DNA of 64,000 nt, taken from Alphaproteobacteria bacterium (GTDB lineage: Bacteria; Pseudomonadota; Alphaproteobacteria; MPNO01; UBA830). Location of the stretch: assembly GCA_964291215.2 (NCBI GenBank), contig OZ219790.1:1600001-1664000 (forward strand), read 5' to 3'. A program made the position numbers and the translations under genes. How positions within the stretch are numbered: the stretch's first letter is position 1; each line of letters starts with the position of its first letter. Positions 2,886 through 64,000 of this stretch are shown here, piece after piece. The notes below the pieces were generated by a model. It saw only the letters and a program-made list of their open reading frames with translations, did not search any database and was not told the origin of the DNA.

Positions 2886-5125
2886 GTAAGCGTTCGTTCG
2901 TGCGGTGAGGTGTTGTTGTTTTCGTCCGTTTGACGGGCTTTTGTCAGGGAGTTCCAGCGTCACCCGGAGCGGTTTCGTGCGCCGGGATGCGCGGTGAGGG
3001 GCACTGGCGCCATGCCGTGTTTTCCGCATTGGTTGCGGTTTTGTCCCGGCGCTGCGGAGGAGGAGCTGAGCGCCATCCTGTGCCGGTTGCAGGGTTCAGA
3101 GGGTCCGCTTCCAGTCCTTGCGGAGCGGGCCAGATGTCCTTCTTCGGCTTCTGTCATGTCGGTCGTGGCGGCCGCTGGTTGTTCCGACGCGGCCGGCAGA
3201 CGCCGCGGCGCGGGACCAGGGTCTCGCAGGGCACGGGCGTGGTGTTGCAGCGCGCGGTCCATGCGGCGGTCGAGAAGCAGCGGCTCGCCGCATGGTAGCG
3301 CATCTGCGGCGCCGACCAGGCGCGTGTATCCGAGGTCGTGTCAGCGGGCGGGGCTCGTCGAGAATCTTCGGGGCGGCGGTGTCCGACGTGATCAGCTTCG
3401 GGGGGGCTGGCAGCGGCAGAAGGCGCGGGCGATGGGGTTCGCTCCGTGATCGTCGCAGCAGCCGCATCTCCGCGACCATGAAGTCGTGCCCTCGACCTCA
3501 CGGCGGCGCTGCGAATCTCCGCCGCCTCTCCGGGCTCACGGCAACCAGGGCGACAGATCGCCGGGCGGCCGTTCTCCGCGCAGGCGCCAGCGCAGAACGT
3601 CGAGGCCGCTCCTCGCGGCCGTGTACATGACAGCCGTCCATGCTGTCGGAACCGAAGCCGGGCTTCCGCCCGGGCCCCTGACAGCCCTTTCCCCGAAATT
3701 GTTGTCCATGGTCGACGAACACGCGATGGTTGAGCGCAGCGGCCTGCCTTCCGGCGCCGCTTTCGGAAGCCTCGGCGCTTCCGCAAACAGCGACCGCAGT
3801 CTCCGGCGCCGCCTGCGCGGCCTCGAACGCCGCCGGAAGCAAGGCAGTCGAGCCGTGTTCAGGCGGCAGATCTCCGCGATCGATCCATTCCCACCCCTCC
3901 AGCTGCAGCCGGCGCAGTCCGGAAAGTCGCGCCGACAATGCGCCCGGCAACAGCACAGGATGATGAAGGACCACAGGCGCGCCAGCTTCTTGCAGGCGCC
4001 GTAGCGGTCGCAGACATGGGGGCGTCCGCAAACAGCTTCGCCGCGACCTCGGCGCTGCGCGAGGGAGAGGACCGCGTCACGGCTGACCGATGTCCGGAGC
4101 CAGGCGCGACTTCCGGACCTCCCTCAGGGCCCGGATGCATCGGCATGGCGCAGACCCCGGTGCGCGAGGATCGCGTCCCGAAACGGCTCGAACAGGGGCA
4201 GCATCCGGCTCGCTGGCCGGCGTTCCCGGCGAAAGCCCCTGGACGCGGCGCAAGGGCCGCATGCACGCGCTCGTGCAGCACATGCGTCCACACCCGAATG
4301 CGGTGCCGGGAAACAGCCGCCACCGGTGAACCGGGGCAGTCACAGCCCCGGCGGACAATCCGCCGCTTTTGATCTCGATGATCCTGGTGCGAACCGTTGG
4401 CAACGCAGCACGAGCAGGCGTCCTCCGCCACCTTCAGCCGCTCCTCCACCTCCTCGAGCGCCGGCCGCGGCCATGTGCCGCGCTGCTGGCCGCGCTTCGA
4501 TGACGCCCGCTGCCTCTTCTCGCTCTTGCGTCCGTACATCGACGACCTGTTCAAACGAAGCTTGTCGTTCTCCGCCTCGAGCGCCCCGACCCTTCAGAAC
4601 CTTCATCGCGGTCTTCAGGCCGGCATTCTCCATGCACAGCGACACTACCGTCGACCGCTTCCGCGCGCCGGCCTCGGCAAGAAGCCCGCCCGGACGCGCA
4701 ACCTCCTGCTTCAGCGCAAGAGACTGCTTCGCCGTCCGCCGAACTTCCCTGACCTCCGCACGGGCAGCTGACAGCTTCTCGCGATTGCTCTCGAAAATCG
4801 CCTTCAGGGAATTCGTGCGGCTGCGCTCCTCCACCTCCTGCATGCGCAGCTCCTCGCAGCGACCCTCCGCAGCCGCCGTGCGGGCTTCCGCCGCCTCGGC
4901 TCGAATACGCTCGCGATCGTACAGGGACTTCCAGGTGACCGAATCACGACACGACGACTGCAGCATGTCGCCAGCGGCGTCCGCACCCGATGATGGCATG
5001 AAATCCTCAATGCACATGACCATGCACGACCTGATGGCACCGTCAAAAAATTTACGGCCCCCTTCTCCGAATCACCAAAACAAATCTCGGCGCAGATCGT
5101 CATCACCGCATGAACGAACGCTTAC
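2886..5125 (-). mobile_element. Degenerate IS66-family element (type A)
   Basis: Inverted termini GTAAGCGTTCGTTCGTGCGGTGA (2886) and TCACCGCATGAACGAACGCTTAC (ends 5125); frameshifted transposase-like fragments; no matching TSD. Confidence 0.8.
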
Positions 5126-5365
5126 TGCGGAGCGTTCCCACCTCCACCGCTCGGCCCTGCCGTCGTGACAAAATCTTGCCCTGAAACGGGCGATTGTCAC
5201 GAAAACTCGTTTTCGCCGCTGCCTCGCGACCGCACAACCGTGCTAAATCAATGACTTGGATTCGCCATACGAGAACTGCACCCTACCAGCATGAGTTCAC
5301 CTTGATATCACCTAAACCCCAAAATATCATGGACCAATTACATGATTTAGCCGATGAAGTTCCGT

Positions 5366-6361
5366 TTAGATCTTCGAGAGTTCGTGCGTCGATTCCGCAA
5401 ACAGTTCCTCAGGCGTCATCAGGCGTTCGGAAAGCCCGTGGCTGTAGGAGTAGCGCGCGAGCGCCTCGATCTCGTGGCGGCATTCCTCGACGCCGTACCG
5501 CCAGAAGTCGTCGCCCATGAGCGCGACCGTATCGCGCCGTTCCGCATCGACCCACGGAAGCGTTATCGCGAGCGCCGCGGTCTTGGCGATCTGCTCGTAG
5601 GCAGCGTCGCGCGCCTCGACCAGCGCCTTGTAGATGCTGCAGGGAAGCCACGGATATTTTTTGACTAGATTCTTGCGGACGCCCATCAGATGCATGATCG
5701 GGAACATTCCGGTCTTGCTGTAATATTCCCGCTCGACCGACCGGAAATTGGAAAACAGCCTCCCGATGTTGGGCTTGCCCAACGTGAAGCTTGAGGGTGC
5801 GCGCGCCGTGGTCAGCGCATCGAGTTCGCCTGCCTCGAACATTTCGACCAAGGTGCGATCCCCGGGGATCGGCTCGAGATCGAGGCCGGCGGGAGGTTCG
5901 AAAGGCGTGCGCTCGTCTCGTCCCGGCTCCTCCTGGCCGCCGGAGCGCCAGCGTATCTCGGTCGGCTTCACGCCATATTCGTCCTCAAGAATGCCGCGCA
6001 TCCAGACCGGCGCCGTCATCTGGTATTCGGGCACCCCCACGAGCTTGCCGCGCAGGTCTCCCGGCTTCTCGATCCCCCGGTCGGTGCGAATATAGAACGC
6101 CGAATGCCGGAACAGGCGGCTCACGAAGGCCGGAATGCCGACATAGTCGCTCTTGCCCTGAGACATCACCCTGATGTAGCTGGAAAACGACAGTTCGCAG
6201 CAATCGAACTCGGCGAAACGGAAGGCCCGAAAGAACACCTCCTCCGGTTCCATCGGGATGAAGGTGACGTCGCACCCCTCTACCTTGACGCTGCCGTCCT
6301 TGATCGCCGCGAGCCTGTCCGTGTCCCCGGCCACGATCGTGATGGGTATGTCTCTTGCCAT
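5366..6361 (-). CDS. 4,5-dihydroxyphthalate decarboxylase-like / ABC substrate-binding-fold protein
   Basis: EEVFFRAFRFAEFDCCELSFSSY, GVPEYQMTAPVW and FPIMHLMG motifs typical of the family. Confidence 0.8.
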   Translation of the reverse strand: MARDIPITIVAGDTDRLAAIKDGSVKVEGCDVTFIPMEPEEVFFRAFRFAEFDCCELSFSSYIRVMSQGKSDYVGIPAFVSRLFRHSAFYIRTDRGIEKPGDLRGKLVGVPEYQMTAPVWMRGILEDEYGVKPTEIRWRSGGQEEPGRDERTPFEPPAGLDLEPIPGDRTLVEMFEAGELDALTTARAPSSFTLGKPNIGRLFSNFRSVEREYYSKTGMFPIMHLMGVRKNLVKKYPWLPCSIYKALVEARDAAYEQIAKTAALAITLPWVDAERRDTVALMGDDFWRYGVEECRHEIEALARYSYSHGLSERLMTPEELFAESTHELSKI

Positions 6362-6453
6362 GGATGAACTCCTGCCGTCGGATGTGTGCTGCCGCCGATG
6401 ATACCAGTCTCGGGCCGGCTCGCAAAAGGAAGCGCCCGGGTCCGCGGCATCCG

Positions 6454-9576: not shown

Positions 9577-11639
9577 ATGCCGTTCGCCGCGGCAACAACC
9601 GGAGACGCGATCGCCGCGTTCGAGCGCGACGGCGTAGCGCTGGTCCGGCGAGCCTTCACCGACCGGTGGCTCGGCATGCTCGACGAGGCCGTGGACGCAG
9701 CGCTCGCAACGCCGAGCCCGCTGTCGCGCGAATACGCACCCACAGGCCGCGGCCACTTCTTTGCCGACCATCACATGAGTCAGAACAGCGAGGACTTCCA
9801 GCAGTTCATCGAGGAGTCGCCGGCAGCCGCGATTCCGCCGGGGTACTGTAACTTGATGTCTGGAAATTTGTCTGAGGTTTGCGCTTTGAGGCGTTTCACT
9901 GGGGGGCTAGCCCCCCCAGTGAAACGCGGCGCCATCGTGCTATCCCATGGAGTTGTAAAACCTTCATGGAGGAAGCGAATGGACCTGCGACACACTACGA
10001 CGATTGAGGCCGTTTTGGAACATCTGATCGCAAACGGAGCAACGGATCTGGGGCGGGTCTTTGGCCAGCTCTTCGAGCTTGCGATGCATATCGAGCGCGA
10101 GCAGTACTTGAAAGCGGGCCACCGGACACCGGAGCGACAGGGCTATGCCAACGGCTACAAACGGATCGACACCCCCACTGTTGCCGTTCAGGTGCCAAAG
10201 ACGGCCGGTCACGGGGACGACCCCCCAGTCGCTTGAACGCGGCCAGCGATCTTCTCGCGCCGTAGCCGAGATGTACATCAAGGGTGTTTCCACACGGCAG
10301 GATGTAATGCGCGAGTTCGGGAGCCTGTCCTCTTCTCAGGTCAGCCGGGCCACCAGGTTGCTCGATGAAGAACTCGCCGCGCAACCGGCCCCTGATGAAA
10401 TACCTGGATGCGCGCTACGAAAAAGCCCGCCATGACGGCGTTGTGCGCGATGTCGCAGTGCTCTCGGCCATCGGAATAGGGGCTGCAGGCACGTTCTGGG
10501 GCTCTCTGTGGCGCTCTCCGAGGCCGAGGTCCATTGGAGAGCCTTCCTGGAAAGCTTGCTAGCCCTGCATGGTACGACCTTCATCGTCTCGGATGCCGGG
10601 CTGAAAGCGGCACGACGCGCGGTGCTGGGCGCGGCGACATGGCAGCGCTGCCAGTTCCACCTGGCGCAAAACGCCGTGCACCGAACAACGACATCAGGAA
10701 ACGTATTGGAAAACAGCTCAGAGCCACGCCTCCTCACTCCAAACCGCCGAGGCTGAACTGGGCGCCCTCGTGGCCAGCGACAAGCATCCAGGCTTCCTGG
10801 CTGGAAAACAATGCGGGGCTCGCTGTCTTCACCTTGCCCGATGCTCACCACAAGCGTATGCGAACCTCGAACGGCATCGAGCGACCGATCCAGCAAGAGC
10901 TCAAGCGGCGCATCTCCAAAGTCAGGGTCTTTCCGAACCTCGCCTCGTTGGAGCGCCTCTCAACCGCGGTCCTCATCGACGAAAAATGGGAAACCGAAAC
11001 CAAGATCAAATGGGAACAGCTCGATCAGCTTCACGACAATTTCCAGACATCAGGTTGCGTAATCATCGCCGCCACGCTGCTCCGGGCAAACCGGCTCTGG
11101 TTGGTCGACGAGCACCTGCTGGTGAAGGAGCCGGGAACCGATGTCCCGACGCACTGGCATCACGACCTCCCCTACTACGACATTTCCCGGGACGGCTTCG
11201 CGTCCCTCTGGATCCCGCTCGACATGGTCACCGCAACATCGGGTGCGATGAAATTCGTGAAGGGATCGCACCGGTGGAACAAGTTGTTCAGGCCGATAGG
11301 GATCGGCACCGGACTTGAGGCCGAGGGCGCCGACAGGTTCGACGGCCCGGCGCCGGAAATCGACGCCAGTCCCGGCGACTACGATGTCGAGATCTTCAAA
11401 ATGGACCGCGGCGACGCGCTGTTCTTCCAGACGGCGACGCTGCACGCCGCCAAGCCCAACCGGACCGCCGCCGCGCACTATCGCTGCGCTATGCCAGCGA
11501 GGCTGCGCGCTGGCAGCCTCGCACCTACGTTCCATCGCGGCCCGACAAGCCCGACCTTGTCCCCGGCTCCGTTCTCGGCGATAACCTCTATCCGGTGGTT
11601 TGGCCGCGCAGGAACGCGGCGCAGCCTGACGAGGTCTGA
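9577..11639 (+). pseudogene. Phytanoyl-CoA dioxygenase (PhyH)-family gene split by IS256, plus one small deletion near 11468
   Basis: N-half AFERDGVALVR...SPAAA ends about 9830; C-half IAATLL...KEPG...WHHD...GSHRW...TLHAA resumes at 11065; RRRALSLRY tail lies in a shifted frame. Confidence 0.85.
9841..11064 (+). mobile_element. Degenerate IS256-family element, copy 1
   Basis: Fragments AEMYIKGVSTR, LDARYEK, WQRCQFH, RTSNGIER, ELKRR..VRVFPN; imperfect TIRs sharing TGATGTCTGGAAATT; palindrome 9891-9927. Confidence 0.9.
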
Positions 11640-14999: not shown

Positions 15000-15046
15000 C
15001 CCAAGTTGGCACTTTTTGCGACCTGGAATTTTTATCACGTACCCCG
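15000..15046 (+). mobile_element. IS1634-type left-end remnant
   Basis: CCCAAGTTGGCACTTTTTGCG is identical to the end at 59640 that precedes an IS1634 transposase. Confidence 0.6.
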
Positions 15047-17798
15047 TTCCATAGTGAAGTGCAACACATGATGGGCTGTGACCATGTGTTTTAAGACGCA
15101 TGATGTTGCGGAGCGGTAGCGGCGAGAGTTCCTGTACAAGATGAAGGGAGCTTGTTCATGTCCAAAGGCTACCGTCACCTACGAAGAGCGATGCCAGATT
15201 GAGGCGTTACAGAAAAGCGGTCTTTCACAAGGTGCGCTTGCTCGGCAGCTGGGCCGATCAACAATTTTTCGGGAGATCAAGCGTAACACCGGGGGACGGG
15301 GTTACCGTCACAAGCAGGCGCAAAGGATGGCAGAAACGCAGGGCAGCCTCGTCTGTTTCCTGGCGGTTGACGCCTCGAGTTGAAGCTCAGAAAAAGCTGC
15401 GGGAGGGCCCCGAGCAGCGGCCGTTTTCGACTGGAAGGCCGTGAACGGATCCATGATCGCCGAAGATCGGAGAGCCGGGGGTGTCTTGTGGAAGAAGCTT
15501 CGGCGGCGCGGCAAGAAGCCGAACTGGAAGGGCGGATACCATTCCGGCCGGGTCCTGTGGACATTTCCGAGCGCCCTGCGGAGGCAAAGGAACGGGTCGG
15601 CGACTGGGAGCCATCATCGGCGAAGCTCACAGTGGAGCTGTCGTGTCGCTCGTACCACGAAATACACCTTGCTGGGTGGACAGAAAGACACGGTCGGTTC
15701 GGTCATGATCCGCCTGCTCGGCTCTGGTGCGCTATTGGTCCACACAATCACGTCAGACAACGGAGTTCGCAGACCACAGGCGTGTCGCACTTGACGCAGA
15801 TTTCTTCTTCGCTTGTAACTGCTCACCCCCCTGGTTCCGGCTTGATGTCGGGGTAGAGCAACGAACGGGTTTTCGTGGAGATTTGACACTGCAGGCCGAT
15901 TCGCTTAGTGGTGGTCATCGAGAACGACGGGGACCGCCAGTGGGCTACTTTGGATCGAAGGCGACGAGCGGGCTGTGCCAGCTGCTTCCGGGGCTCCAGC
16001 CCCCGCATGATCTGTATGTGGAAACGCATCTCGGAAGCGGCGCGTTGATGAAGCGCAAGGCCGGGTGATGGCGACGGGCGGCGCGCGAGGAGTTCGAAGC
16101 GGCCAAGACCGCGGCGCTGCGTGCGGCCGGCAAGGTGCCGAAAGATGTCGATGCCGTGATCCGCGTCTTCGTCATCCTGCTCGATATCCTCATCGTCGTC
16201 CTTCTGGAGAAGACCACGCACGAGCCGGAACTCCGGTCTGCTGCCGTCACAGACGGACAAGAGCGTGCCGGGAGCAACGGCAAGGGCCCGAAGCCGAACC
16301 GGCGGATGGGCGACAACCTGCGCAAGACCATCGTCGAGGAGACGGTCGCGGCCTGCGACGCCTGCGGCGCTGGCATCGACGGCCCCATCGATCGGGAGCG
16401 CCGCACGACATCGTGTTCGAGGTCGTCGAGCGCCGCGCCGAGATCAAGGAATGCCCGAAGTGCAAGGGCCGGTTCCCCGAAAACATCCCGTGCAGTACGG
16501 CATCGGCATCCAGGCCCTCGTTATCAACCTGCTGGTCGCCCAGATGCTGTCCCTGCGCCGTGCCGTCGCGCTCATGCAGGCGATCTCCGGCATCAAGCTC
16601 TCCGAGGCAACCTGCCTCGGCTATGCTTTCACGATGTGTCATGGAAGGAGGCCGCCGTGGCGCACTTCCTGCAACGCCCGATGTCGACGATTTCGGATCA
16701 ACGGCAAGTGGCTCCATGTCGTCACCGACGGAACCCTGACGTGTAAGTTCCCGCACCGCAAGCGCGGCCGGGAGGCAAGAGATCGGCCCGTGCTACAAGG
16801 GCGTTCTGACTGCTGGGCCTCGTACATGGGCTATGACCAGTGTAGCCACCAGCTGTGCGGTAGCCACCTGCTGCGCGAACTGACCTTTGTCGTCGAGGCT
16901 ACCGCGCGACTGATGAAGAGCCTGCTCCGCGAGATCTGCCACAAGGTCAACAAGAGCGCATCCAAAACCCTGAACGAGGCCGACCTCCGGGCCGTGCGCA
17001 AGCGCTACCGTACCATCAGGGTGCCAGGGAACTGCCCGACATCCCGCCGAAAGGAAAACGTGGACGCAAGTCCGACGCGCACAACCTGCACGAACGTCTC
17101 GTGAAACACGAAAACCTGCGCTTCACAGACGACCCCGATGTCAGCTTCACCAACAATGCCGGAGAACAGAAGATCAGGATGGCAAAGCTCAAGGTGTCCG
17201 GATGCTTCCGCTCCACGCGAAAGCATGGTGCCGGGGCTCAAGCTACCTCACCTCCATGGCGGCACTCGGCTACAACCCACTCGTCGCCACCCAGATCGCC
17301 CTCGACGGAAAAGCCGCAGACATCATCAACGAGCACTACGACCAATCAGAACCCAATTAGGGGTGAGTAGATACCTTCGCTTTTCCATTCCCGGGAACGC
17401 GGCTTGAATGAGCACACCAACGGCCTGGTGCGGGAGTACTTCCCGAAGGGCACGGACTTTCGCGCGACATGCAACGAAGATGTTCAGAAGGTGCAGGATC
17501 GGCTCAACACTCGGAAAGTCATGGGATCGCCGACGGAGGTAATCTTGAAGTGAAACCGCCCTGACCATCTGCGTTCCGCAGCCGCAACGTGCAGCAGGGT
17601 CCATGCCGCGCGACGGCGAAATAGTGGCTTGAAGCCGACAAAGGCGTTGCATAAGCTCGATGTTGAAGGAACTGAAGCTGTTCCCAGGCGGAATCGAGAG
17701 GGGCAGAGGGGAAAAATTTGCACAACATCCGGCCCTCATCTCCGTTCGGGCTACGCCCTCACTGCGATGAGGGCCGGATGTTGCACTTCAGACTGGAA
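15047..17798 (+). mobile_element. Degenerate IS30-family element interrupted by IS66-B copy 1
   Basis: TIRs TTCCAtagTGAAGTGCAACA (15047) and TGTTGCACTTCAgacTGGAA (ends 17798); fragments YEERCQI, REIKRN, GDWE, TITSDNG, ERGLNEHTNGLVREYFPKGTDF. Confidence 0.85.
15815..17374 (+). mobile_element. IS66-family element type B, copy 1 (truncated MTase plus degenerate transposase)
   Basis: Ends GTAACTGCTCACCCC / GGGGTGAGTAGATAC; 8-bp TSD CTTCGCTT; HQLCGSHLLREL and FTNNAGEQKIRMAK motifs. Confidence 0.92.
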
Positions 17799-17871
17799 GT
17801 GGGGATTTAAAAATCTCCTCGCACCAACCCGCGCCCCCGCAACACCCAGATGCTGTCTTGAAAAACCAAAC

Positions 17872-19370
17872 GTATCTACTCACCCCTAGTTGGGTTCTGA
17901 TTGGCCATAGTGCTCGTTGATGATGTCTGCGGCTTTTCCGTCGAGGGCGATCTGGGTGGCGACGAGTGGGTTGTAGCCGAGTGCCGCCATGGAGGTGAGG
18001 TAGCTTGGCACCATGCTTTTGCGTGGAGCGGAAGCATCCGGACACCTTGAGCTTGACCTTTGCCATCCTGATCTTCTGTTCTCCAGCATTGTTGGTGAAG
18101 CTGACGTCGGGGTTGTCTATGAAGCGCAGGTTTTCGTGTTTCACGAGACGTTCGTGCAGGTTGTGCGCGTCGGACTTGCGTCCATGTTTTCCTTTCGTCG
18201 GGATATCGGGCAGTTCCCTGGCGCCCTGATGGTGCGGTAGCGCTTGCGCCCGGCGTCGTTCAGGGTCTTGGATGCGCTCTTGTTGACCTTGTGGCAGGGA
18301 GCAGGCTCTTCATAAGTCGCGCGGTAGCCTCGACGACAAAGGTCAGTTCGCGCAGCAGGTGGCTACCGCACAGCTGGTGGCTACACTGGCCCATGTACGA
18401 GGCCCAGGACGCCCTTGTAGCACGGGCCGATCTCTTGCCCGCGCTTGCGGTGCGGGAACTTGCACGTCAGGGTCCCACGACATGAAGCCACTTGCTGTTG
18501 ATCCGGTCTCGTCGACATCGGGCGTTGCAGGAGGTGCGCCACGGCGGCCTCCTCCCATGACGCATCGTGAAAGCATAGCCGAGGCCTCGGAGAGCTTGAT
18601 GCCGGAGATCGCCTGCACGAGCGCGACGGCGCAGGGACAGCATCTGGGCGACCAGCAGGTTGATGACGAGGGCCTGAATGCCGTACTGCACGGGATGTTG
18701 TCGGGGAACCGGCCCTTGGTCCGGGCCTTGCACTTCGGGCATTCCTTGATCTCGGCGCGGCGCTCGACAACCTCGAACACGATGTCATAGAGGACGCGGC
18801 GCTCCTGATCGACGGGGCCGTCGATGTCGGCGCCGCAGGCGTCGCAGGCCGCGACCGTTTCCTCGACGATGGTCTTGCGCAGGTTGTCGCCCATCTGCCG
18901 GTTCGGCTTCGGGCCCTTGCCGTTGCTTCCGGCACGCTCTTGTCCGTCTGTGACGGCGGCAGACCGGAGTTCCGGCTCGTGCGTGGTCTTCTCCAGAAGG
19001 ACGACGATGAGGATGTCGAGCAGGAGGACGCGGATCACGGCCTCTTCCGCCACCTTGCCGGCAGCGCCGCGGTCTTGGCCGCTTCGAACTCCTCGCGCGC
19101 CGCGTTGACCGTCGCCATCACCCGGCCTTGCGCTTCATCAGCGCGCCGCCTCCGAGATGCGTTTCCACATACAGATCATGCGGGGGCTGGAGCCCCGGAA
19201 GCAGCTGGCACAGCCCGCTCGTCGCCTTCGATCCAAAGTAGCCCACTGGCGGTCCCCGTCGTTCTCGATGACCACCACTAAGCGAATCGGCATGCAGTGT
19301 CAAATCTCCACGAAAACCCGTTCGTTGCTCTACCCCGACATCAAGCCGAAACCAGGGGGTGAGCAGTTAC
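17872..19370 (-). mobile_element. IS66-family element type B, copy 2
   Basis: Same ends as copy 1, inverted; 8-bp TSD AACCAAAC; sits in a fragment homologous to 29190-29260. Confidence 0.92.
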
Positions 19371-40372: not shown

Positions 40373-40391
40373 CGCCGGCCTCCCAGCCACG

Positions 40392-43433: not shown

Positions 43434-43502
43434 AACTCTTCCGCGCAGTCATCGCGCCCGTATAGCGCGGCCAGCCAGCCGGAACAAGACGATAGAGTCT
43501 GT

Positions 43503-44102: not shown

Positions 44103-44130
44103 CTGCCTTCGTGGCCTCCGTTGAATTCGG

Positions 44131-44940: not shown

Positions 44941-45151
44941 CTGCTGTCCCAGTTCTGCCACTGCCGCGCCGATCCGGCAGGTTCTCGGACCGGAAACCGG
45001 TGAGACGGGAAGCATCGCAACTCCGGCCTCGACAGGCCCAAAAAGGCCTGCTCCAGGATCCGGCCGTTCGATTGCCCGCCAACCCGGCCTTTGCCACAAA
45101 CGAAAGGGAACGTTACCATCGGGTGCTCCCCGACGCAAGCCTCGGTAGGAA

Positions 45152-45718: not shown

Positions 45719-46056
45719 AGTTTGCTGTCGAGCTCCGCGGTTGCCTTTCCCGGCCGCTTGCGAACGACCATCCCGAACGGGCACGAACAAGGCCTTGTCC
45801 AGACCCGGCGCCACACCGGGTGCAATCGCCTTCGCGAAAGTTGCTGATCCCTGATACGAGGCGGTGTTCGGAAACGAGCGGGATCTGATGGCGGGTCCCG
45901 CGGCCGTATTACCACGGCCCCCTGTCCAGATCTTCGCGTTCCGGTTGCAGGCCGCCAAATTCCCGCTTCGACATCCGGCAGCGGCGGCGGGCACGAGTCG
46001 ACGTTCGCGCAGCCGGGGCTGTATTTCCTAGTGTCGGGGGACTGTATACTGGAGCA

Positions 46057-48291: not shown

Positions 48292-49175
48292 CGGAGTCAG
48301 GATCGTGGACGATCAGGGTCGACGCCCCGAACGCGGCTGCAGTGCCTGTTCTTGAGGTGGCGATCGCAGATCTGATAGTTGCCGTCTCGGTGCAGCACGA
48401 CGAACGCGCGGGAATCTGGCGGCTTACCGGCCACTCGGCGGAACGGCCCGACCGTTCGGCCGTCGTCCGTTCCCTTGCCGTTGCTGCCCACGCCGCCGGC
48501 ATCGCCACACCCGCAATCACGATTTCCCGCCTCGCCGCGACGGACTGGATCGCCGAACAGGAACGCGCACTGCCGGCGCTCGACATCGGCCGCTTCCGTG
48601 TCTTCGGATCCCACGTGACCGATCCCGTTCCGGCCGGACGCGTCCCGGTCCGGATCAATGCGGGTCTGGCGTTCGGAACCGGACACCACGAGAGTACCGC
48701 GGGCTGCCTCCTCGCCGTTGACCGCCTGTACGGCAGCGGCCGGTCGCCACCCCGAACTCTCGATATTGGAACCGGAAGCGGGATTCTCGGAATCGCGATC
48801 GCGCGGTGGCTCGATAGCCCGGTCATCGCCACCGACATCGATCCGGTTGCCGTGCGCGTGGCCAACGCCAACGCCCGCATAAACGGGGTCTCTGACCGGT
48901 TCTCGGCCCTCGTGGCCGACGGATTCGGCGACGACGAAGTTGTCCGCAACCAACCTTATGGCTTGATCGTCGCAAACATCTTCGAGAGGCAACTCATCGA
49001 CCTCGCGCCCCTGATCGCTCCGGCGCTCGCTGTCGGTGGTCATGTCGTTCTCTCCGGGCTTCAGGCCAAGAGCGCTGACCGCGTCGCAGAGGCCCTTGCG
49101 GCAGCCGGTATCGCGCGCATCGACCGCGTGGAACTGTCCGACTGGACCACCCTCGTCGGTGCGCAGGCACGGTGA
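48288..49175 (+). CDS. prmA: Ribosomal protein L11 methyltransferase
   Basis: AFGTGHHESTAGC, LDIGTGSGILGI and IVANI motifs; ATGA overlap with uvrD. Confidence 0.92.
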   Translation: MTESGSWTIRVDAPNAAAVPVLEVAIADLIVAVSVQHDERAGIWRLTGHSAERPDRSAVVRSLAVAAHAAGIATPAITISRLAATDWIAEQERALPALDIGRFRVFGSHVTDPVPAGRVPVRINAGLAFGTGHHESTAGCLLAVDRLYGSGRSPPRTLDIGTGSGILGIAIARWLDSPVIATDIDPVAVRVANANARINGVSDRFSALVADGFGDDEVVRNQPYGLIVANIFERQLIDLAPLIAPALAVGGHVVLSGLQAKSADRVAEALAAAGIARIDRVELSDWTTLVGAQAR

Positions 49176-49207
49176 CGGCAGCCGTCCGCACGCCGCGGTC
49201 GCAATCG

Positions 49208-49800
49208 CAGGCATTTCCCACGCTGCATTCAATTTTGCTGTCTTCCACTGTCCGGAGGTTTCACAGACCCAACCGTGCCGGGTTTTCTGGCTTTGGGGCC
49301 GTCCGCGGTCGTCGCCGACGGCGTTATCGGCGCGTAGACGGGTTCACGGTGACCCCACGCTGCTAATCCGGCGACGACTGGCGTGATTTTCTCAGTTTGC
49401 GTCGCGCTACAATCGTGCCGCCAAGGCTCGACGGGATTTTCTCGGCACGAAAATTGCGATCAAGGAGGCGATCTGTGATGATCCGAGCCTCAACGCATTC
49501 GGATTTCGCGTCTCCGAATTAGCATGGCATCGTCGTGGGGCGGGTTGTTTTCGGGTTGTGGGCCTTTCAATCTGACACTATTAAGTCCATTGATTTCTGC
49601 ATATCGGCTTTCCGCATCGCTCGGTGATATTCGGTGAAATTGAGGAGGATCTTGTAGTCCTGCCAGAGTTTCTCGGTTCCCGGCAGGGGGTGGTGTTTGC
49701 CGGGGATGAAGCCTGCCACGCGTGCGACCTCGATGGCGAAGACTTTGATGGTCGGTTCGGGGTCGAGAGGTTCACGCGGTTTGTACTGTTTATAGATCTT
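49208..49800 (-). mobile_element. IS4-family (IS50/Tn5-like) remnant: transposase C-terminus plus end
   Basis: VARVAGFIPGKHHPLPGTEKLWQ resembles the dimerisation domain; end CAGGCATTTCCCACGCTG. Confidence 0.7.
49345..49537. mobile_element. 194-bp MITE, copy 2 (inverted relative to copy 1)
   Basis: Homologous to 19424-19617; degenerate 9-bp TSD AGACGGGTT/GGGCGGGTT; absent from the homologous IS4 end at 27985. Confidence 0.8.
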
Positions 49801-49878
49801 GTAACTGCTCACCCCCTGGTTCCGGCTTGATGTCGGGGTAGAACAACGAACGGGTTTTCGTGGAGATCTGACACTGCA
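49801..49878 (+). mobile_element. Solo left end of IS66-B
   Basis: GTAACTGCTCACCCCCTGG...TGACACTGCAG. Confidence 0.8.
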
Positions 49879-49889
49879 GATCGTTTCGG

Positions 49890-50161
49890 TTAGTGTGAAC
49901 TTCCTAGGCTACCTCCACCAAATCCTGATCCTGGCTGAATGTCACGGCCACATCGAGAGCGCCGTTGCGCGCGATTCGCACCATGTCGAGACCAATCCGA
50001 AGGTCTGTTTCCTTCTCGCGCTGTGCCGGCACACCATGCGTCGTACCGTCCGGAAGCGGGACCCGCTCGGAGCGCGGTTTCCGGGAGGTCACGAGAATCC
50101 CGACGCGGCTCATTGCGGTCAGGTACCGCGCCCGGCACGCCGGATCTTTCCTGGCGTCGGG
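49890..50161 (-). pseudogene. NYN-domain (PIN-like) protein fragment
   Basis: REKETDLRIGLDMV...DVAVTFSQDQDL resembles the NYN EKGVD...SGDSD motifs. Confidence 0.6.
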
Positions 50162-50685
50162 GTATCTCCTCACCCCTCCGCAGAGGCGGGTTTGGCGTTG
50201 TGCATCTTGATCATGTCGGCGGCGTTTCCGGCGAGTGCGATCTGGATGGCAACGAGCGGGCTGTAGCCGAGTGCGGCCATGGAGGTGAGATAGCTTGAGC
50301 TTCGGCACCAAGCCTCGGCTAGAGCGGGGTTCGGAAGCATCTGGAGACCTTGACCTTTGCCATCCGGATTTTCTGCTCGCCGGTGTTGTTGGTGAAGCTG
50401 ATGTTCGGGTCGCTCATGAAGCACAGGACGAACTCTTCATGCCTTGCGAGACGCTCCTGGAGGTTGTGCGCGTTCGCGATCGGTCCGCGTTTTCCTTTCT
50501 GTCGGGGCGGGATTTCAGGCAGTTCCTTCGCCCCCCGGGTCAGGGTGGTCCGGTAGCGCTTGCGCACGGCGGTCGGCCTCGTTCAGGGTCCTGGATGCGC
50601 TCTTGTCAACCCTGTGGCAGGCAGCAGTTTCTTCATCACGCGTGCCCGGCGGTAGCCGTTGGCGTCGACGATGACGGCCGGTTCC
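50162..50685 (-). mobile_element. 3' part of an IS66-B-related element
   Basis: End GTATCTCCTCACCCC; AHNLQERL and FTNNTGEQKIRMAKVK motifs. Confidence 0.85.
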
Positions 50686-51979: not shown

Positions 51980-54900
51980 ATCGCGGTAGGGAACCGGGTT
52001 ACCCCGGTCCCCCCGCACGGATCCGGACGTGCGCTGTTCGCATCCGGCTCTTCCCTCAAGTCCTGACGACAAGGCGCTGGCTTGGCCACGGGTGGCGGAT
52101 GCTGGCTCAGTGGGCAGCGATAAGGGTGTCCAAGACCCTCCAATCGGTGCGGTCCTTTTGGAAGCGTCGCCGAAGGGCACGCAGCAGTTTGCATTGGTAT
52201 ATGAACTCCCGCAGGCTGCTTCCCGGAACGGCGTAGTAGCAGCCGTTGATAACTCACCACTTGGCCGTCTTGTGCCGGTTGTCGTGCCACCGCATGCGCA
52301 AGGCCTCATTGATCCGCCGCAAGGTGCCCGTTTGCGAGACGGTTTGCGACCAACCCTGAACCTGCCTTTCCTCGTCTGCTCGCAGAAGTGCGTCATGCCG
52401 AGGAAGTCGAACGTCTTGCCCACGCTTCCGGCGGTTCGCTCTGGCAAACCGACCGAACTCGATGATTGTCCGGGTGCAGTTCAAGCGGGCCAGTCTCTCC
52501 CCAAGGTCCCAGCGCTGCGCATCACCCAGATGCTGAAAGCCGCACACGAAGTCGTCCGCATAGCGGACAATGATCGTGTCAGCCATCCGCTTGCGCCAGT
52601 GGTTCTGGAACCAGTCGTACGTAGTGCAGGTTCGCAAGGCATGGCGATACGACGCCCCGAACGCAAAAGGTAACTCTCGCCTTCGGGTCCGCCGTTGTCG
52701 GGTTTCGACGGGTCCGCGCCCGGCGAGCCCGAGATCGGGATGGAATGGCGGATAGTGATTTTGTCCTCGGTGACAAGTATCTCCTTCACGAGGAGCCGGA
52801 CGATACGCTGCCGTTCGGCGATGTCCAGAGTTTCGGCTGACGAACGCAGCCGCGCCAGAAAGCCGGTCAGAGTCTCGGCGAGCCGAAGATAAGTCTCTCG
52901 ATCCTTGGCCCGATCGACAGTGGATTGCAGTTCGCGATGCAACGCTTGTTCCTGACGGCGGAGCTCGGGCGTTCTGTTGCGCAACTCGTCGATGGTGATC
53001 AACTCCTCCTGATAGGCCGTGACGAGGCGGTCGATGGCCTTGCGGACCCAGCCGATGCCGAAGGTCGGCTGCTGGCTTGGATCGGAGACACGGGCTGCCT
53101 CCAGTCCGATCTCTGCTTTCACGAGCGCCGGATCTTCGAGCAAGCGGACCAGCCATACGATGTCATCGAGCAGATGCACGGGACGGCTGTTGCACAGCGG
53201 GCCGTTGAGATGGCGCCAGGCGTCGGAACCCAGGCAGCGGTAGTAGGAGATCTTGCGCGCAGTGGTGCGGGCCGACGTGCGATACAGCGCGTAGCCGCAT
53301 TTGCCGCACGCCCCTGCGAGACGCTGGGCGTTTTGGTCCTACGCCTGGAGAAGACCTTGTTGCGTTGCTCTTCGGCGAGGGCGAAGGTCTCTTCGCTGAC
53401 GATCGCCGGCACTGGGATCTCGATCCAGTCTTCCCGCGGCCGTTCGTGACCGGCAGTGTTGCTGTCGGCGAACCCGTCGCGGCGGCGCAGAGGCCGCACG
53501 CTGCGGCGCAACCCGGGTCTTGCACGCCCTTCCCTTGTACTCCGCAGGATCACCACCGAGCGTTCCCAGCGCCCGGAAGACGTGGGGACACTTGTTGAGT
53601 GTGCGAGCGATCGCGCCGATGCTGACGTGATCTTCGGTGTAATGGCGGTAGATCACGGACGCCTGCGGTTCGGTGATTTCGTAGAAAGCGTCGCTGTCCT
53701 GGGTTTTCTTGTGGTAGCCATAGGGTGCGCCGGCGAGGACGGCGACCTCGCCGCGCCCGATGACGCTTGCCGCGACGGGAACGCTCCAGAATCTGCGCCC
53801 GCTCGTATTCCGCGATCATTCCCTGGACGAGGAGATGGTCTTCGGGGGTTTCCATCGACGGCAGGAACACGGTCTCAACGCCGGGCCAGCTCCTCGATGA
53901 TCAGAACCTGATAGGCGGCGGCTCAAGCGATCCGGGGCATGGACCAGGACGGCGCGCCCCTCCGCGGCGAGGTCCCTGACACGCGTTCGAGAACCGCGCC
54001 GGTATAGCCGTCATCCTCGATGACCATGTCGGGCGCCACGCAGTAGCCATGGCGTGTAGGCAACCAAGGCCTGGCTGGCGATCGTGTTGCTATCCCTGCT
54101 CGCCCGAGACCCACAGGGCTGCAATCTTCATGATCGTCTCCTACGTCGTGGGTTGGGATCTTGTGGGCCGGGCACCAGGATCGCGTAGGCGTTCTGGAGC
54201 TTGGCGGCGAGCAGACGATCAAAGTCAAGGTGAACGGCGGGCCGAGAGCTTGAGCGGCGTTCAGCAATGACGACCCATGTCCGAGCGTCTCAAAGCCCGC
54301 GCGACAATCTCCCCTATCGAATCGCCGCTGCTCCTGGAATGCGCCCGCAAAGCCTCCGTGCCTGGAATCTTGATGGTGATCGGGATCACCGCCTCGGCCG
54401 GCTGGCGCACGCCTCCTGGAGGTAGCGATACGCCGTGACAAACCGAAGCGCTGAGACAGGCACCGCTTCGCTTGCCGTCACGCCTTGGGCGAGCAAGGTG
54501 TACGCGGTGCCGCTCGACCTTTTGGGATCGCGATGATCGGGCCATTTGTCATAACGATATTACCGTTTGCGTCTCAAGTCAATCAAAGGGCGGTCGCGCC
54601 AATGCACAATTTCGCGCTCAAAGCGGAAGTTACCTTTTGCGTTCGAGGCGTTACAATCGCCCCTTGCGGTGTTCCCTTGCCAGTCGGTCCCTTCCATGAC
54701 GCCGGCGTCACTTGATGATCAGACCCCCCGATCCGTTTCTCAAGCATCGCAACCAGCTGGTCGCGGTTGTCGAAGAACCCCCGGGCGTCAACGATCCAGT
54801 TGACCTTCCACCGTTCCACCGTGACGGCGCATGATGCGCCCCGTCCGGAAGCCGTAACTAAACCCGAGGAACTCCGTCTCGCGGCACCAGAATCACACCG

Positions 54901-55625
54901 CCCGCTGAAGAATCTTGTCCTCCAGCGAGGCAAGCGGTCGTTGCCCTCCATCCTCCTTGGGTATGTAGACCCTGGAGGCGCCCGGTACGCACCCCTGTGC
55001 ACACGGGCGTGCAGGTCAACCAGACGGTCTTCCAAACCCTCCGCGTACGCTTGCCACACAACGCCCCGCCGCCGCGTCCTTCCTCAAGGAATGGAACGCA
55101 TCGTGCAGAATGTCGACCGTCACGTGGTGGAGTAAAGACGCTCTTCCGGGTTCCTCTTCGCTACCTGCGTTCAGCCGCCTGTGACCCCCGCTTCTGCGCG
55201 CGGCGCGGGCCAACCGCATTGCCCTTCCCTCAAACAACTCCGCAGGCTCCGAAGAACCCTTGTTCGCCGCCTTCAACGGTACTATGGCCGAATCTGACTT
55301 CTCGTTCATCATCGGTTTACGGATTAGTTCCTTTCCTCTGCGGCCCCTCCACGACAGAGGGGCAAGACCTCCCAGGTCCCTGCTTCGGCCATGGTTCTCA
55401 GACCCCGCGGAGCCCCCGTCTGCCTCACCAATACGGCACACAGGGTGTTGCCTTCGGCCACGACCTCGGCACTCCGGTTTCACAGAATCTCGTGGCTCAA
55501 TAGCCCGGCCTGCCGCTCACCAACGCTTCGCCTCACGACGCATGGTTCACGGAGAAAGTGGTGGTTAGCCTCTCTTCCTGCCGGGACTTGCACCCGGCAA
55601 CATTCCACCAGTTAGCCTGGCGCAC
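51980..55625 (-). mobile_element. Group II intron 2 nested in intron 1 (close homolog), RT split by a recombinase element
   Basis: 5' GTGCGCCAGG at 55625; DV GAGCCGGATGCG...CGCACGTCCGG and 3' end CCTACCGCGAT at 51980; GTPQG, VRYADDF and FDFLG motifs. Confidence 0.88.
52651..54651 (-). mobile_element. Large serine recombinase element (degenerate) with terminal inverted repeats
   Basis: 24-bp IR ACGCC(C/T)CGAACGCAAAAGGTAACT; TAC direct repeats on both flanks; fragments EDDGYTG, IAEYERAQILERSRRGK, IPVPAIVSEETF, ERQRIVRLLVKEI. Confidence 0.82.
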
Positions 55626-55921
55626 CCAGCAACTCCGCAGGCTCCGAAGAACCCTTGTTCGCCGCCTTCGACGGTACCATGGCCGAATCTGACTTCTCGT
55701 TCATCATCGGGTTACGGAATAGTCCCTTTCCTCTGCGGCCCCTCTACGACAGTGGGGCAATTGAAAGACCTCCCGGGTCCCTACTTCGGCGTGTGCCATG
55801 GTTCTCGGACCCCGCGGAGCACCTGCTCGCCTCACCATCGCGGCTCGCAGGGTGTTGCCTTCGGCTTGGCGGACCATCTCGATACTCCGGTTTGACCTGA
55901 ATCTCGTGGCTCGATAGCCCG

Positions 55922-59990: not shown

Positions 59991-62733
59991 GTGGGGGGGG
60001 GCTAGCCCCCCAGTGAAACGCGGCGCCATCGTGCTATCCCATGGAGCTGTAAACATTCATGGAGAGTAACTGCTCACCCCCTGGTTCCGGCTTGATGTCG
60101 GGGTAGAGCAACAAACGGGGTTTCGTGGAGATTTGACACTGCAGGCCGATTCGTTTAGTGGTGGTCATCGAGAACGATGGGGACCGCCAGTGGGCTACTT
60201 TGGATCGAAGGCGACGAGCGGGCTGTGCCAGCTGCTTCCGGGGCTCCAGCCCCCGCATGATCTGTATGTGGAAACGCATCTCGGAGGCGGCGCGCTGATG
60301 AAGCGCAAGGCCGGGTGATGGCGACGGGCGGCGCGCGAGGAGTTCGAAGCGGCCAAGACCGCGGCGCTGCCGGCAAGGTGGCGGAAGAGGCCGTGATCCG
60401 CGTCTTCGTCATCCTGCTCGACATCATCATCGTCGTCCTTCTGGAGAAGACCACGCACGAGCCGGAACTCCGGTCTGCCGCCGTCACAGACGGACAAGAG
60501 CGTGCCGGGAGCAAGGGCCCGAAGCCGAACCGGCAGATGGGCGACAACCTGCGCAAGACCATCGTCGAGGAGACGGTCGCGGCCTGCGACGCCTGCGGCG
60601 CCGACATCGACGGCCCCGTCGATCGGGAGCGCCGCGTCCTCTATGACATCGTGTTCGAGGTAGTCGAGCGCCGCACCGAGATCAAGAAATGCCCGAAGTG
60701 CAAGGCCCGGGGCCGGTTCCCCGACAACATCCCGTGCAGTACGGCATCGGCATTCAGGCCCTCGTCATCAACCTACTGGTCGCCCAAATGCTGTCCCTGC
60801 GCCGTGCCGTCGCGTTCGTGCAGGCGATCTCCGGCATCAAGCTCTCCGAGGCCTCGGCTATGCTTTCACGATGCGTCATGGGAGGAGGCCGCCGTGGCGC
60901 ACCTCCTGCAACGCCCGATGTCGACGATTTCGGATCAACAGTAAGTGGCTTCATGTCGTGGGACCCTGACGTGCAAGTTCCCGCACCGCAAGCGCGGCCG
61001 GGAGGCAAGAGATCGGCATCATCCCGTGCTACAAGGGCGTCCTGGGCCTCGTACATGGGCTATAACCAGTGTAGCCACCAGTTGTGCGGCAGCCACCTGC
61101 TGCGCGAACTGACCTTTGTTGTCGAGGCTACCGCGCGACTGATGAAGAGCCTGCTCCGCGAGGTCTGCCACAAGGTCAACAAAAGCGCATCCAAGACCCT
61201 GAACGACGCCGGGCCGTGCGCAAGCGCTACCGCACTATCCTCACTCAGGGCGCCAAGGAACTGCCCGACATCCCGCCGCCGCCGAAAGGAAAACGTGGAC
61301 GCAAGTCCGACGCGCACAACCTGCACGAACGTCTCGTGAAACACGAAAACCTGCGCTTCACAGACGACCCCAACGTCAGCTTCACCAACAATGCCGGAGA
61401 ACAGAAAATCAGGATGGCAAAGTTCAAGGTGTCCGGATGCTTCCGCTCCACGCAAAAGCATGGTGCCGGAGCTCAAGCTACCTCACCTCCATGGCCGCAC
61501 TCGGCTACAACCCACTCGTCGCCACCCAGATCGCCCTCGACGGAAAAGCCGCAGACATCATCAACGAGCACTATGAATCAGAACCCAACAAGGGGTGAGT
61601 AGATACCATGGAGAAAGCGAATGGACCTGCGACACACTACGACGATCGGGACTGTTTTGGAACATCTGATCGCAAACGGAGCAACGGATCTGGGGCGGAT
61701 CTTTGGTCAGCTCTTCGAGCTTGCGATGCAAATCGAGCGCGAGCAGCACTTGAAAGCGGGCCACCGGACACCGGAGCGACAGGGCTATGCCAACGGCTAT
61801 AAGCCCAAACGGATCGACACCCCCACTGTTACCGTTCAGGTGCCAAAGACGGCCGGTCACGGGGACGACCCGTCCCCAGTCGCTTGAACGCGGCCAGCGA
61901 TCTTCTCGCGCCGTGGCCGTAGCTGAGATGTACATCAAGGGTGTTTCCACGAGGCAGGATGTAATGCGCGAGTTCGGGAGCCTGTCCTCTTCTCAGGTCA
62001 GCCGGGCCACCAGGTTGCTCGATGAAGAACTCGCCGCGCAACCGGCCCCTGATGAAATACCTGGATGCGCGCTATGAAAAAGCCCGCCATGACGGCGTTG
62101 TGCGCGATGTTGCAGTGCTCTCGGCCATCGGAATAGGGGCTGCAGGCACGTTCTGGGGCTCTCTGTGGCGCTCTCCGAGGCCGAGGTCCATTGGAAAGCC
62201 TTCCTGGAAAGCTTGCAAACCCTGCATGGTACGACCTTCATCGTCTCGGATGCCGGGTTGAAAGCGGCACGACGCGCGGTGCTGGGCGCGGCGATGTGGC
62301 AGCGCTGCCAGTTCCACCTGGCGCAAAACGCCGTGCACCGAACAACGGCATCAGGAAACGTATCGGAAAACAGCTCGGAGCCACGCCTCCTCACTCCAAA
62401 CCGCCGAGGCTGAACCGGGCACCCTCGTGGCCAGCTATCGCGACAAGCATCCAGGCTTCCTGGCTGGAAAACAATGCGGGGCTCGCTGTCTTCACCTTGC
62501 CCGATGCTCACCACAAGCGCATGCGAACCTCGAACGGCATCGAGCGACCGATCCGGCAAGAGCTCAAGCGGCGCACCTCCAAAGTCAGGGTCTTTCCGAA
62601 CCTCGCCTCGTTGGAGCGCTTCTCAACCGCGGTCCTCATCGACGAAAAATGGGAAACCGAAACCAAGGCATACATCAAATGGGAGCAGCTCGATCAGCTT
62701 CACGACAATTTCCAGACATCAGGTTGCGTAATC
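59991..62733 (+). mobile_element. Degenerate IS256-family element, copy 2 (left end lost; interrupted by IS66-B copy 3)
   Basis: Closely homologous to 9900-11064; same right end. Confidence 0.9.
60066..61606 (+). mobile_element. IS66-family element type B, copy 3
   Basis: Both ends present; 8-bp TSD CATGGAGA. Confidence 0.92.
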
Positions 62734-62735
62734 AA

Positions 62736-63363
62736 ATTTGACACTGCAGGCCGATTCGTTTAGTGGTGGTAATCGAGAACGACGGGGACCGCCAGTGGGC
62801 TACTTTGGATCGAAGGCGACGAGCGGGCTGTGCCAGCTGCTTCCGGGGCTCCAGCCCCCGCATGATCTGTATGTGGAAATGCATCCGGGAGGTGGCGCGC
62901 TGATGAAGCGCAAGGCCGGGTGATGGCGACGGGCGGCGCGCGAGGAGTTCGAAGCGGCCAAGACCGCGGCGCTGCCGGCAAGGTGGCGGAAGAAGCCGTG
63001 ATCCGCGTCCTCGTCATCCTGCTCGACATCCTCATCGTCGTCCTTCTGGAGAAGACTACGCACGAGCCGGAACTCCGGTCTACCGCCGTCACAGACGGAC
63101 AAGAGCGTGCCGGGAGCAAGGGCCCGAAGCCGAACCGGCAGATGGGCGACAACCTGCGCAAGACCATCGTCGAGCGCCGCGTCGACGCCGAGATCAAGGA
63201 ATGCCCGAAGTGCAAGGGCCGGTTCCCCGACAACATCCCGTGCAGTACGGCGTCGGCATCCAGGCCCTCGTCATCAACCTGCTGGTCGCCCAAATGCTGT
63301 CCCTGCGCCGTCGCGCTCGTGCAGGCGATCTCCGGCATCAAGCTCTCCGAGGCAACCTGCCTC
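62736..63363 (+). mobile_element. IS66-B copy 4 (continuation of the left end at 59563-59637; 3'-truncated)
   Basis: Resumes at ATTTGACACTG, where the 59563 end stops. Confidence 0.85.
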
Positions 63364-63540
63364 GACCACTCGCCTCCGCGCCCGATGGCACGGGCCTCCG
63401 TCGCCGCCCACAGGCGCCGCGCACGTTCGTTCAGAACCGGACGCAACACCACAAACTTGGATCGCAGCGTATCGACCATCGCTTCCATGACATCATCGAT
63501 GGCAGATCCACACCAAAAAATAACCTATTTTGGCGAGAGA
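63364..63540 (-). mobile_element. ISAzo13-family transposase N-terminal fragment
   Basis: LRSKFVVLRPVLNERARRLWAATEARAIGRGG from 63488. Confidence 0.75.
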
Positions 63541-63554
63541 CCTAAGCACGTCTG

Positions 63555-63845
63555 CGGGCGGGCGGACAGCGGTCTCGGTCAGTGGTTCGACCACGGCCTG
63601 CCCGCGGCCGCATCCGCTGCGGCGCCGGCAGAGGCGGAGGTGGGGCACGGGTTCGGCCTTGCCGGTCCGAGCCTCTGGCGGTGCTCACCCCCTGGGCCGG
63701 GCTGAGCCTGGCGGGCGCACGCTGCGGCTCGGCACCCGCTACCACATGGACGCGGGGCTTTCGCTCGGCCTCAAGGGCGCGCACCGGCCGGGTCCGGCTC
63801 CCGAAGACAGCCTCATGCTGCGCGGCGCGCTGCGCTGGTCGAACG
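63555..63845 (+). pseudogene. C-terminal beta-barrel fragment of an autotransporter-like outer membrane protein
   Basis: EAEVGHGFGL...LTPWAGLSLA...RTLRLGTRY...LSLGLKG...LMLRGALRW in shifted frames. Confidence 0.5.
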
Positions 63846-64000
63846 CCCGGAGATGGCGCGTCAGGTCTCCGACATGCAGTTTGGCATTTCATTGCTCTAC
63901 CCCGACATCAAGCCGGAACCAAGGGGTGAGCAGTTACTGCTGCACAGGCGTTTTCATGTCTGTCCAATAGTCGGCAACCAACTCGGGCGGAACGTGTCCT

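Follow-up and report, generated by a model that had tools for sequence, protein, structure and literature searches.

Multicopy elements in the window

We analysed a 64,000-nucleotide (nt) stretch of alphaproteobacterial DNA (GenBank assembly GCA_964291215.2, contig OZ219790.1, positions 1,600,001 to 1,664,000; hereafter the window), in which multicopy insertion sequences (ISs) and a group II intron are interrupted by short deletions, mostly of 5-7 nt. The source genome, G000, comprises 6.15 Mb in two contigs (C1 and C2) and is 99% complete; the window is C1:1600001-1664000. Its 16S gene is ~89% identical to Rhizobiales and Skermanella records, which makes G000 an alphaproteobacterium distant from both. 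Repeats account for one third of the genome (980 segments, 2.06 Mb). We built 79 repeat families and aligned copies for 74 of them. For comparison we used a sister genome, G001 (93% identical to G000; ~1 Mb of its 5 Mb compared), another complete genome of the same genus, G002 (400 kb picked around IS66 matches, 155 copy pairs), and three runs of one study, X1, X2 and X3, which hold most of a window stretch, X2 and X3 lying ~0.5% single-nucleotide polymorphisms (SNPs) from X1. An earlier note made from the letters of the window is called the first-pass annotation. The features of the window are as follows.

2886..5125, minus strand: IS66-type copy (families F14 and F20, 26-32 copies), 32 deletions, mostly of 5-7 nt; family label from the first-pass annotation and IS66-type ends; fragments without a Pfam match
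9843..11064, plus strand: IS256 copy (~100 copies), PF00872 match, 17 deletions; empty site in runs X2 and X3
15042..15812: 5' part of an F3 copy (60 copies; IS30 by the label of the first-pass annotation only), 11 deletions of 5-7 nt
15816..17374, plus strand: IS66-B copy (F0, 181 copies), 8-bp target duplication, weak PF03050 match, 22 deletions
17375..17804: 3' part of F3 in the spared terminal zone, with one 5-nt deletion
17872..19369, minus strand: IS66-B copy, 30 deletions
27873..29616: nested F15 and F18 copies (31-37 copies; ISAs1 by the label of the first-pass annotation only), 27, 12 and 13 deletions
33401..49207: single-copy host genes, used as control, 90-93% identical to G001, with just scattered small gaps
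49563..50319: short terminal fragments of F36 and F30, zero deletions
51980..55626, minus strand: group II intron copy (F5, 62 copies), Rfam RF02005 at 55393-55590, split by a three-copy insert at ~52660-54640; the halves carry 10 and 23 deletions
60067..61606, plus strand: IS66-B copy, 26 deletions
61607..62733, plus strand: IS256 copy, 5'-truncated, PF00872 match, 14 deletions
62736..63364, plus strand: IS66-B fragments, 10 deletions

The first-pass annotation had described the multicopy elements as broken by short deletions at particular places, and these were confirmed in the sequence. Compared with family reconstructions, the IS66, IS256, F3, F15/F18 and intron copies of the window carry 2-30 deletions each, mostly of 5-7 nt. 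All three junctions that it quoted were recovered (intact at 16273 and deleted at 60510; intact at 16604 and deleted at 60848 and 18581; intact at 62432 and deleted at 10775), and its list of IS256 deletion sizes (6, 3, 6, 6, 6 nt) was reproduced exactly from the IS256 pair. The IS66-B copies at 15815 and 60067 differ by deletions of 7, 6, 6, 7, 6, 7, 7, 6, 7, 7, 7, 6 and 3 nt, together with one 1-nt gap, and between the three-copy insert in the intron and one of its siblings there are 19 SNPs and 9 indels, the latter of 5-16 nt. Interleaved host genes were little damaged, also as described: six host stretches of the window showed only scattered gaps relative to G001, mostly of 1-2 nt.

X2 and X3 both show the joint 9831-11065, i.e. 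no IS256 insertion (window 9832-11064). The IS256 element at this site is thus a recent insertion that already bears its 17 deletions. At window position 11465, single-copy DNA carries a 10-nt deletion relative to the same two runs.

Size and position of deletions

Genome-wide counts were pooled over 21 families with at least 20 copies each, with at most 30-40 copies sampled per family; F16, F23 and F24 (at least 20 copies each), which consist of short terminal pieces with a low deletion load, were omitted before counting. The numbers of distinct deletions of 1 to 10 nt were 119, 29, 27, 23, 169, 349, 218, 55, 33 and 20, respectively, and a second bump at 11-14 nt fits merged neighbouring deletions. 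Across 716 copies (680 kb), deletions of 5-8 nt numbered 8,345 (12.3 per kb, or 0.50 per substitution), compared with 16,658 substitutions and 340 deletions of one base. Expressed against 1-nt events, 6-nt deletions stand at 3:1 among distinct events, and 5-8-nt deletions at 24:1 per copy. This size spectrum, together with the single-copy control described below, excludes chance. C-to-T singleton rates varied across contexts only from 2.6 to 4.4 per 1000.

Deletions are absent from the first 50 nt of elements (0 per kb), reach ~2 per kb up to 150 nt and ~16 per kb inside. Of 114 full-length IS66-B copies, 83 still have their 8-bp target duplication, with equal deletion load (23.2 versus 23.2). 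The preservation of termini and target duplications claimed by the first-pass annotation is borne out by these counts, and its caveat that short fragments look undeleted holds for the F36 and F30 fragments, whose cleanness is explained by the sparing of element ends or by young age. The result of the process is that transposases and reverse transcriptases are frameshifted while ends and target duplications stay intact.

Microhomology plays a minor part at the junctions, although it is enriched over chance. The first-pass annotation had placed most deletions between direct repeats of 2-5 nt; at least 2 nt of microhomology was present at just 186 of 425 common deletions (44%, versus 18% by chance), and the other 239 have 0-1 nt. 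Stems of hairpin-loop sites at deletions barely exceeded the null, and no clear periodicity was seen in deletion spacing.

Repeats versus single-copy DNA

In 69 kb of single-copy non-coding DNA aligned between G000 and G001 (8,488 substitutions), 1-nt gaps numbered 108 in G000 versus 87 in G001, and 5-8-nt gaps 56 versus 5. In-frame six-base gaps in coding DNA numbered 26 versus 2. The sister genome G001 is without the single-copy signature. In G000 the 5-8-nt rate in single-copy non-coding DNA was ~0.013 per branch substitution, ~40 times below that of repeats, and 50 broken single-copy genes contained 11 deletions of 5-7 nt versus 19 of 1 nt. Single-copy 5-8-nt gaps were no closer to repeats than substitutions were, giving no sign of spread into flanking host DNA. 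Single-copy mobile remnants provided only one usable case. The restriction of deletions to repeats proposed by the first-pass annotation is therefore strong but not absolute, given this fainter 5-8-nt excess. The annotation had also held that single-copy pseudogenes with the same density and size spectrum would speak against targeting; the excess is there, but at ~1/40 of the rate and without the motif described below.

A general mutator producing 5-8-nt deletions, combined with inheritance, would account for the single-copy gaps of G000, both non-coding and in-frame. Under this explanation dead copies moved in trans, ends were kept by selection and unbiased recombination shuffled the alleles; the spared ends would follow, as would the insertion, absent from X2 and X3, of an IS256 that already had its deletions. 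It does not account for the drop from 0.50 deletions per substitution in repeats to 0.013 in non-coding single-copy DNA, or for the 11 versus 19 deletions in broken genes, and it is further weakened by the linkage data in the next section.

Tabulation against copy number, which the first-pass annotation had proposed, showed that the per-family rate rises with copies (Spearman 0.62 in 74 families; 0.59 in the 56 that also carry one-base indels). The rate was 0.03 at 4-7 copies, reached 0.4-0.5 above 25 copies and was then level. Two-copy pairs were heterogeneous: some were peppered and many were not, with a mean of 0.066 per substitution, versus the 0.013 of single-copy non-coding DNA. In a two-copy group II intron (G000 C1:94843-96596 and C2:14825-13292; 32 SNPs), one copy had 29 deletions and the other 3, and in a two-copy transposase family the peppered copy had 13 deletions versus 21 SNPs, with a nearly clean partner. 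Many other two- or three-copy pairs, often with intact frames, carry no such deletions. Ordinary mutation multiplied by copy number cannot yield the peppered two-copy families unless donors were lost or imported. In duplicated coding DNA of two or three copies, 19 six-base versus 3 three-base gaps were found; host duplicates thus seem to be affected too. A young, single-reading-frame IS66-like family (C1:922200-924000 and 11 siblings; 12 copies, ~99% identical, intact 463-aa frames) had zero deletions of 5-7 nt, indicating that multicopy status is insufficient and that time is needed; it serves as a natural time-zero control.

Sharing of deletions between copies

Deletions were shared as a mosaic among copies and were not private lesions. 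The mean carrier frequency of isolated deletions was 0.52, 0.52 and 0.47 at 5, 6 and 7 nt and 0.29 at 8 nt, compared with 0.03-0.06 at 1-4 nt and 0.01-0.05 at 9-12 nt. Isolated singletons were of an ordinary kind (49 of 1 nt; 3, 10 and 7 of 5, 6 and 7 nt, respectively). Linkage between deletions and SNPs, computed from one assembly and not from reads, was at background even 4-6 nt apart (r2 0.13; 61% of 89 pairs show all four gametes), whereas SNP-SNP linkage at the same distance gave r2 0.43 and a four-gamete fraction of 17%. Copy pairs only 1.8 SNPs per kb apart differ at 4.2 deletions per kb, near the plateau of ~5.7 (59 pairs, a few of which may be close by chance). With inheritance alone, SNPs and deletions should have one frequency spectrum and one degree of linkage; both differ sharply between them, and inheritance alone is rejected. 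The mutator-plus-inheritance explanation is largely refuted, and we regard it as very improbable.

The polarity of the changes was examined in an 11-copy family with an intact G001 homologue. Over 486 nt, the homologue contains 12 segments of 5-14 nt that are missing from the family and is itself missing none; this 12:0 ratio indicates that deletions reach fixation and run one way. Comparison of G002 copies with an intact copy likewise favoured deletions over insertions. In five of six families, more diverged copies bear fewer common deletions. Survival of the target duplications in 83 of the 114 full-length copies indicates that exchange does not proceed by crossover.

Motif at deletion starts

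On either strand, deleted stretches tend to start S|RTC, with TC at +1 in 144 of 332 events versus 66 expected, and relative to the coding direction the motif has two-fold symmetry. It is stronger in G002 (35 of 76 edge positions versus 17%) and is carried weakly by the peppered two-copy families (19 of 58 versus 20%, p 0.017). It is nearly unrelated to allele frequency. Together with the two peppered two-copy families, the weak motif suggests that an enzyme also makes new deletions. Two candidate sources of such cuts were rejected. Abortive transposase cuts are contradicted by element flanks, which match the motif in no family, and by the 8-bp duplication made by the main family. Mismatch-centred cutting of the NucS type is contradicted by the lack of a NucS gene in G000 and of any SNP excess at deletion centres; an excess at the edges mainly reflected hidden microhomology (29 of 48).

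Recurrent cutting at fixed hot spots defined by sequence or structure, acting independently on each copy without a template, is nearest to the idea of the first-pass annotation. It would lead one to expect unlinked SNPs, the peppered two-copy families bearing the motif and the sites that carry two size alleles. On the other hand, local sequence predicts deletion sites poorly (area under the curve 0.77; 29% sensitivity at 5% false positives), distinct deletions overlap barely above chance (149 versus 97-143), endpoints hardly vary at a given site, also without microhomology (341 common sites with 11,590 carriers and 648 overlapping variants), and older, more diverged copies carry fewer deletions. 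We consider hot spots unlikely. The annotation itself had proposed an enzymatic cut followed by microhomology-mediated rejoining. Its enzymatic, size-tuned and repeat-concentrated part is supported, as the rate rises with copies and single-copy pseudogenes are less densely hit; independent cutting and rejoining in each copy is not, as microhomology is modest, Ku and ATP-dependent ligase were not found (see below), and a few alleles that recur across SNP backgrounds make up most of the load.

Related genomes and read support

The pattern recurs in G002 with its mode shifted to 5-6 nt: gaps of 5, 6 and 7 nt numbered 602, 881 and 85, respectively. In this genome, identical deletions lie on two SNP subfamilies whose diagnostic SNPs were left in place. 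The G004 stretches compared had many 1-nt and some 7-9-nt gaps, and few old multicopy elements were present in the stretches of G003, G004 and G030. In G030, which belongs to another family, more than 40 near-identical intact IS256 copies were found (C12 and other contigs), and no peppering was seen in 100 kb.

An assembly or polishing artefact that scrambled indel states among copies could leave deletion states nearly independent of SNP genealogy, as observed, and the phase of deletions and SNPs rests on the assembly. However, read-derived contigs of the three runs cover deleted copies at 95-99% or more; at the window deletions 10403 and 10777, the intact allele appears in loose ends of X1, X2 and X3. 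Young families are clean in the same assemblies and private SNPs survive. A limit of 5-7 nt would be unexpected of an artefact, as would the same motif with a 5-6-nt mode in a second genome. An artefact is unlikely, and we give it only a very slim chance.

Search for effector and repair genes

Among the agents named by the first-pass annotation, Ku was found in none of five genomes and ATP-dependent ligase in none of seven. Piwi (PF02171) was missing from all five genomes G000-G004, although divergent short Argonautes could be missed. The loss of mismatch or exonuclease repair that it had suggested was not seen: MutS, MutL, RecA, RuvABC, UvrC-type GIY-YIG, ExoVII, RecJ, Smr, TopA, RecG, AddA and RecN are present as open frames or full matches, and loss of repair genes was rejected as a cause.

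Short deletions have been linked to topoisomerase IB; no type IB topoisomerase was detected in five genomes. Y1 transposase was likewise not found in the genomes searched. The primase domain of the IS-excision enhancer (IEE), for which we take PF22548 to be the marker, was represented in G000 by just a 35-position stub (AEP-TOTE, C2:1964090-1964197) and was not found in G002.

Clustered regularly interspaced short palindromic repeat (CRISPR) genes are intact, with a type I-G system of ~97 repeats and a type II-C Cas9 system of 17 repeats (C1:574322-591435 and C2:2063981-2069555). CRISPR self-targeting was rejected, as none of the 112 spacers has a long match to repeats outside the arrays. One spacer occurs twice in the first (I-G) array.

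Proposed mechanism

The pattern is real and strongly non-random; its mechanism is a matter of interpretation from sequence. The size window, allele frequencies, independence from SNPs, polarity, dependence on copy number and motif in a second species were observed directly. In our preferred reading, which we give a probability of roughly 0.55, copies pair, a step combining nuclease and ligation clips 5-7-nt loops in one direction so that deletions sweep the family, and a further component makes deletions de novo. Pairing between copies would be of the non-crossover type, probably RecA-driven, and would form heteroduplex. A loop of 1-4 nt or a mismatch would be left to MutSL and not transferred, whereas a loop of 5-7 (8) nt would be cut out and the ends joined over the partner strand, with at most a little repair synthesis. 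Each new deletion would then rise through its family within a time scale of ~10 SNPs per kb. The same or a linked activity may make new deletions inside paired repeats, cutting preferably just 5' of RTC, and its action on slipped loops may leave the faint 5-8-nt excess in single-copy DNA. At its lower end the size window agrees with the ~4 nt above which, in the available text of PMC2504288, loops are no longer handled efficiently by bacterial mismatch repair; its upper end and the one-way bias would require a further activity.

Several points weigh against this reading. No effector gene was identified by the searches above or by a family-library scan that covered 23 of ~3,600 predicted proteins outside the window. 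Deletion load plateaus above ~25 copies instead of scaling. The two peppered two-copy families can be put down to copying from siblings only if the donors have since been lost or belonged to another strain, and pairing by itself does not say why one partner alone was hit. Deletions were not depleted near internal copy breakpoints (26 versus 31 expected at 10-50 nt), and long homology arms are thus not shown. The sparing of ends may reflect selection for mobility; selection for movement in trans is plausible because the IS256 with 17 deletions sits where X2 and X3 have no insertion. The motif is missing from the single-copy 5-8-nt deletions (9 of 88 versus 17%), which may for that reason have another cause. 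Finally, conversion is deduced from allele patterns in one assembly.

The lack of depletion near breakpoints would be expected if RNA or short guides served as templates, with transcripts or small DNAs of deleted copies pairing with intact DNA and the loop being excised and sealed on the guide, one way and without transfer of SNPs. Such templating would explain polarity and SNP decoupling at distances of at least 4 nt without long DNA pairing, and the spared ends could be untranscribed. The two-fold symmetry of the motif in coding orientation and the sparing of both ends do not suit it, nor do the missing Piwi and the lack of any spacer matching a repeat at length. We regard guides as doubtful.

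A more far-reaching version of the preferred reading is a dedicated bacterial counterpart of fungal repeat-induced point mutation (RIP): an enzyme would recognise paired repeats, stamp 5-7-nt deletions and copy them to every sibling, killing transposons and introns with neither guides nor methylation, and would have been gained in the IS-flooded G000 and G002 and be absent or quiet in G001. This we put forward tentatively, as a possibility with less than even odds.

Comparison with known systems

Fungal RIP inactivates repeated DNA by C-to-T changes and is triggered by duplication even at two copies. The process described here resembles it in that the inactivation of repeats grows with their repetition and most single-copy DNA escapes. 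It differs in that the lesion is a deletion without a C-to-T signature and that alleles spread between copies. Gene conversion in general is a tract-like transfer that carries neighbouring substitutions along. Dead Wolbachia IS copies, according to Cordaux in 2009, reportedly exchange sequence by conversion, homogenising it rather than deleting by size.

Deletion-biased nonallelic gene conversion in flies and primates has a bias of ~3.4:1 over all lengths, stronger for long indels in primates (PMC3280953). As in our case, identical deletions occur in paralogues on different backgrounds and deletions exceed insertions relative to an outgroup (here 12:0); further common features are that conversion outpaces mutation, that paralogues shrink in concert and that, in flies, the rate is higher for more similar copies. 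The bacterial process is nearly one-way and locked to 5-7 (8) nt, deletions of 9-12 nt having a frequency of at most 0.05; SNPs 4-6 nt away are not co-transferred, there is a motif, and the host is a bacterium. The process thus operates in the manner of such conversion and has the outcome of RIP, but, lacking a broad size range, SNP co-transfer and a C-to-T signature, it is set apart from both.

Large loop repair of Escherichia coli offers a partial parallel, since loops above ~4 nt escape efficient mismatch repair and a separate route for removing loops exists; as far as the available text of PMC2504288 goes, it handles loops up to hundreds of nt, with no 8-nt cut-off and no peppering of repeats. 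Deletions in bacterial pseudogenes also outnumber insertions, and lengths divisible by three are somewhat over-represented, but the available part of PMC6054270 describes a power law with a 1-nt mode (131 of 396 were one-base), in place of which we found a 6-nt mode. The IEE has IS-related deletion activity with end joining and, in the available text of PMC9943667, needs at least 4 bp of homology; homology of at least 4 nt was present at 52 of our 425 common deletion junctions, and the IEE-type gene is a stub.

Bacterial defences against mobile DNA use, to our knowledge, guides, methylation marks or cell death. No bacterial description of such a process was found in the literature searched, whose coverage excluded most subscription papers. 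If the preferred reading is true, repeats would serve as their own frameshifting templates, which would differ from these defences as a response to IS explosions in symbionts and would also reduce genomes by a route that mutation-rate studies on single-copy DNA would miss. It would imply that some nuclease and ligation activity can take out a 5-7-nt loop and leave bases only 4 nt away untouched, a property of value for precise editing, and deletion-biased conversion, known from flies and primates, would become testable in a bacterium. G000 and G002 versus G001 form a ready contrast for locating the gene; 171 G001 genes have no close match in G000.

Other features of the genome

Further helicase genes were noted in G000, namely a 1666-aa RecQ-UvrD fusion helicase (C2:2751913-2756913), a DrmD-like SNF2 helicase (C1:101820) and a helicase IV-like protein (C2:2009369). 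An IS66 copy (C2:143081-145297) lies ~500 nt from the single 16S gene.

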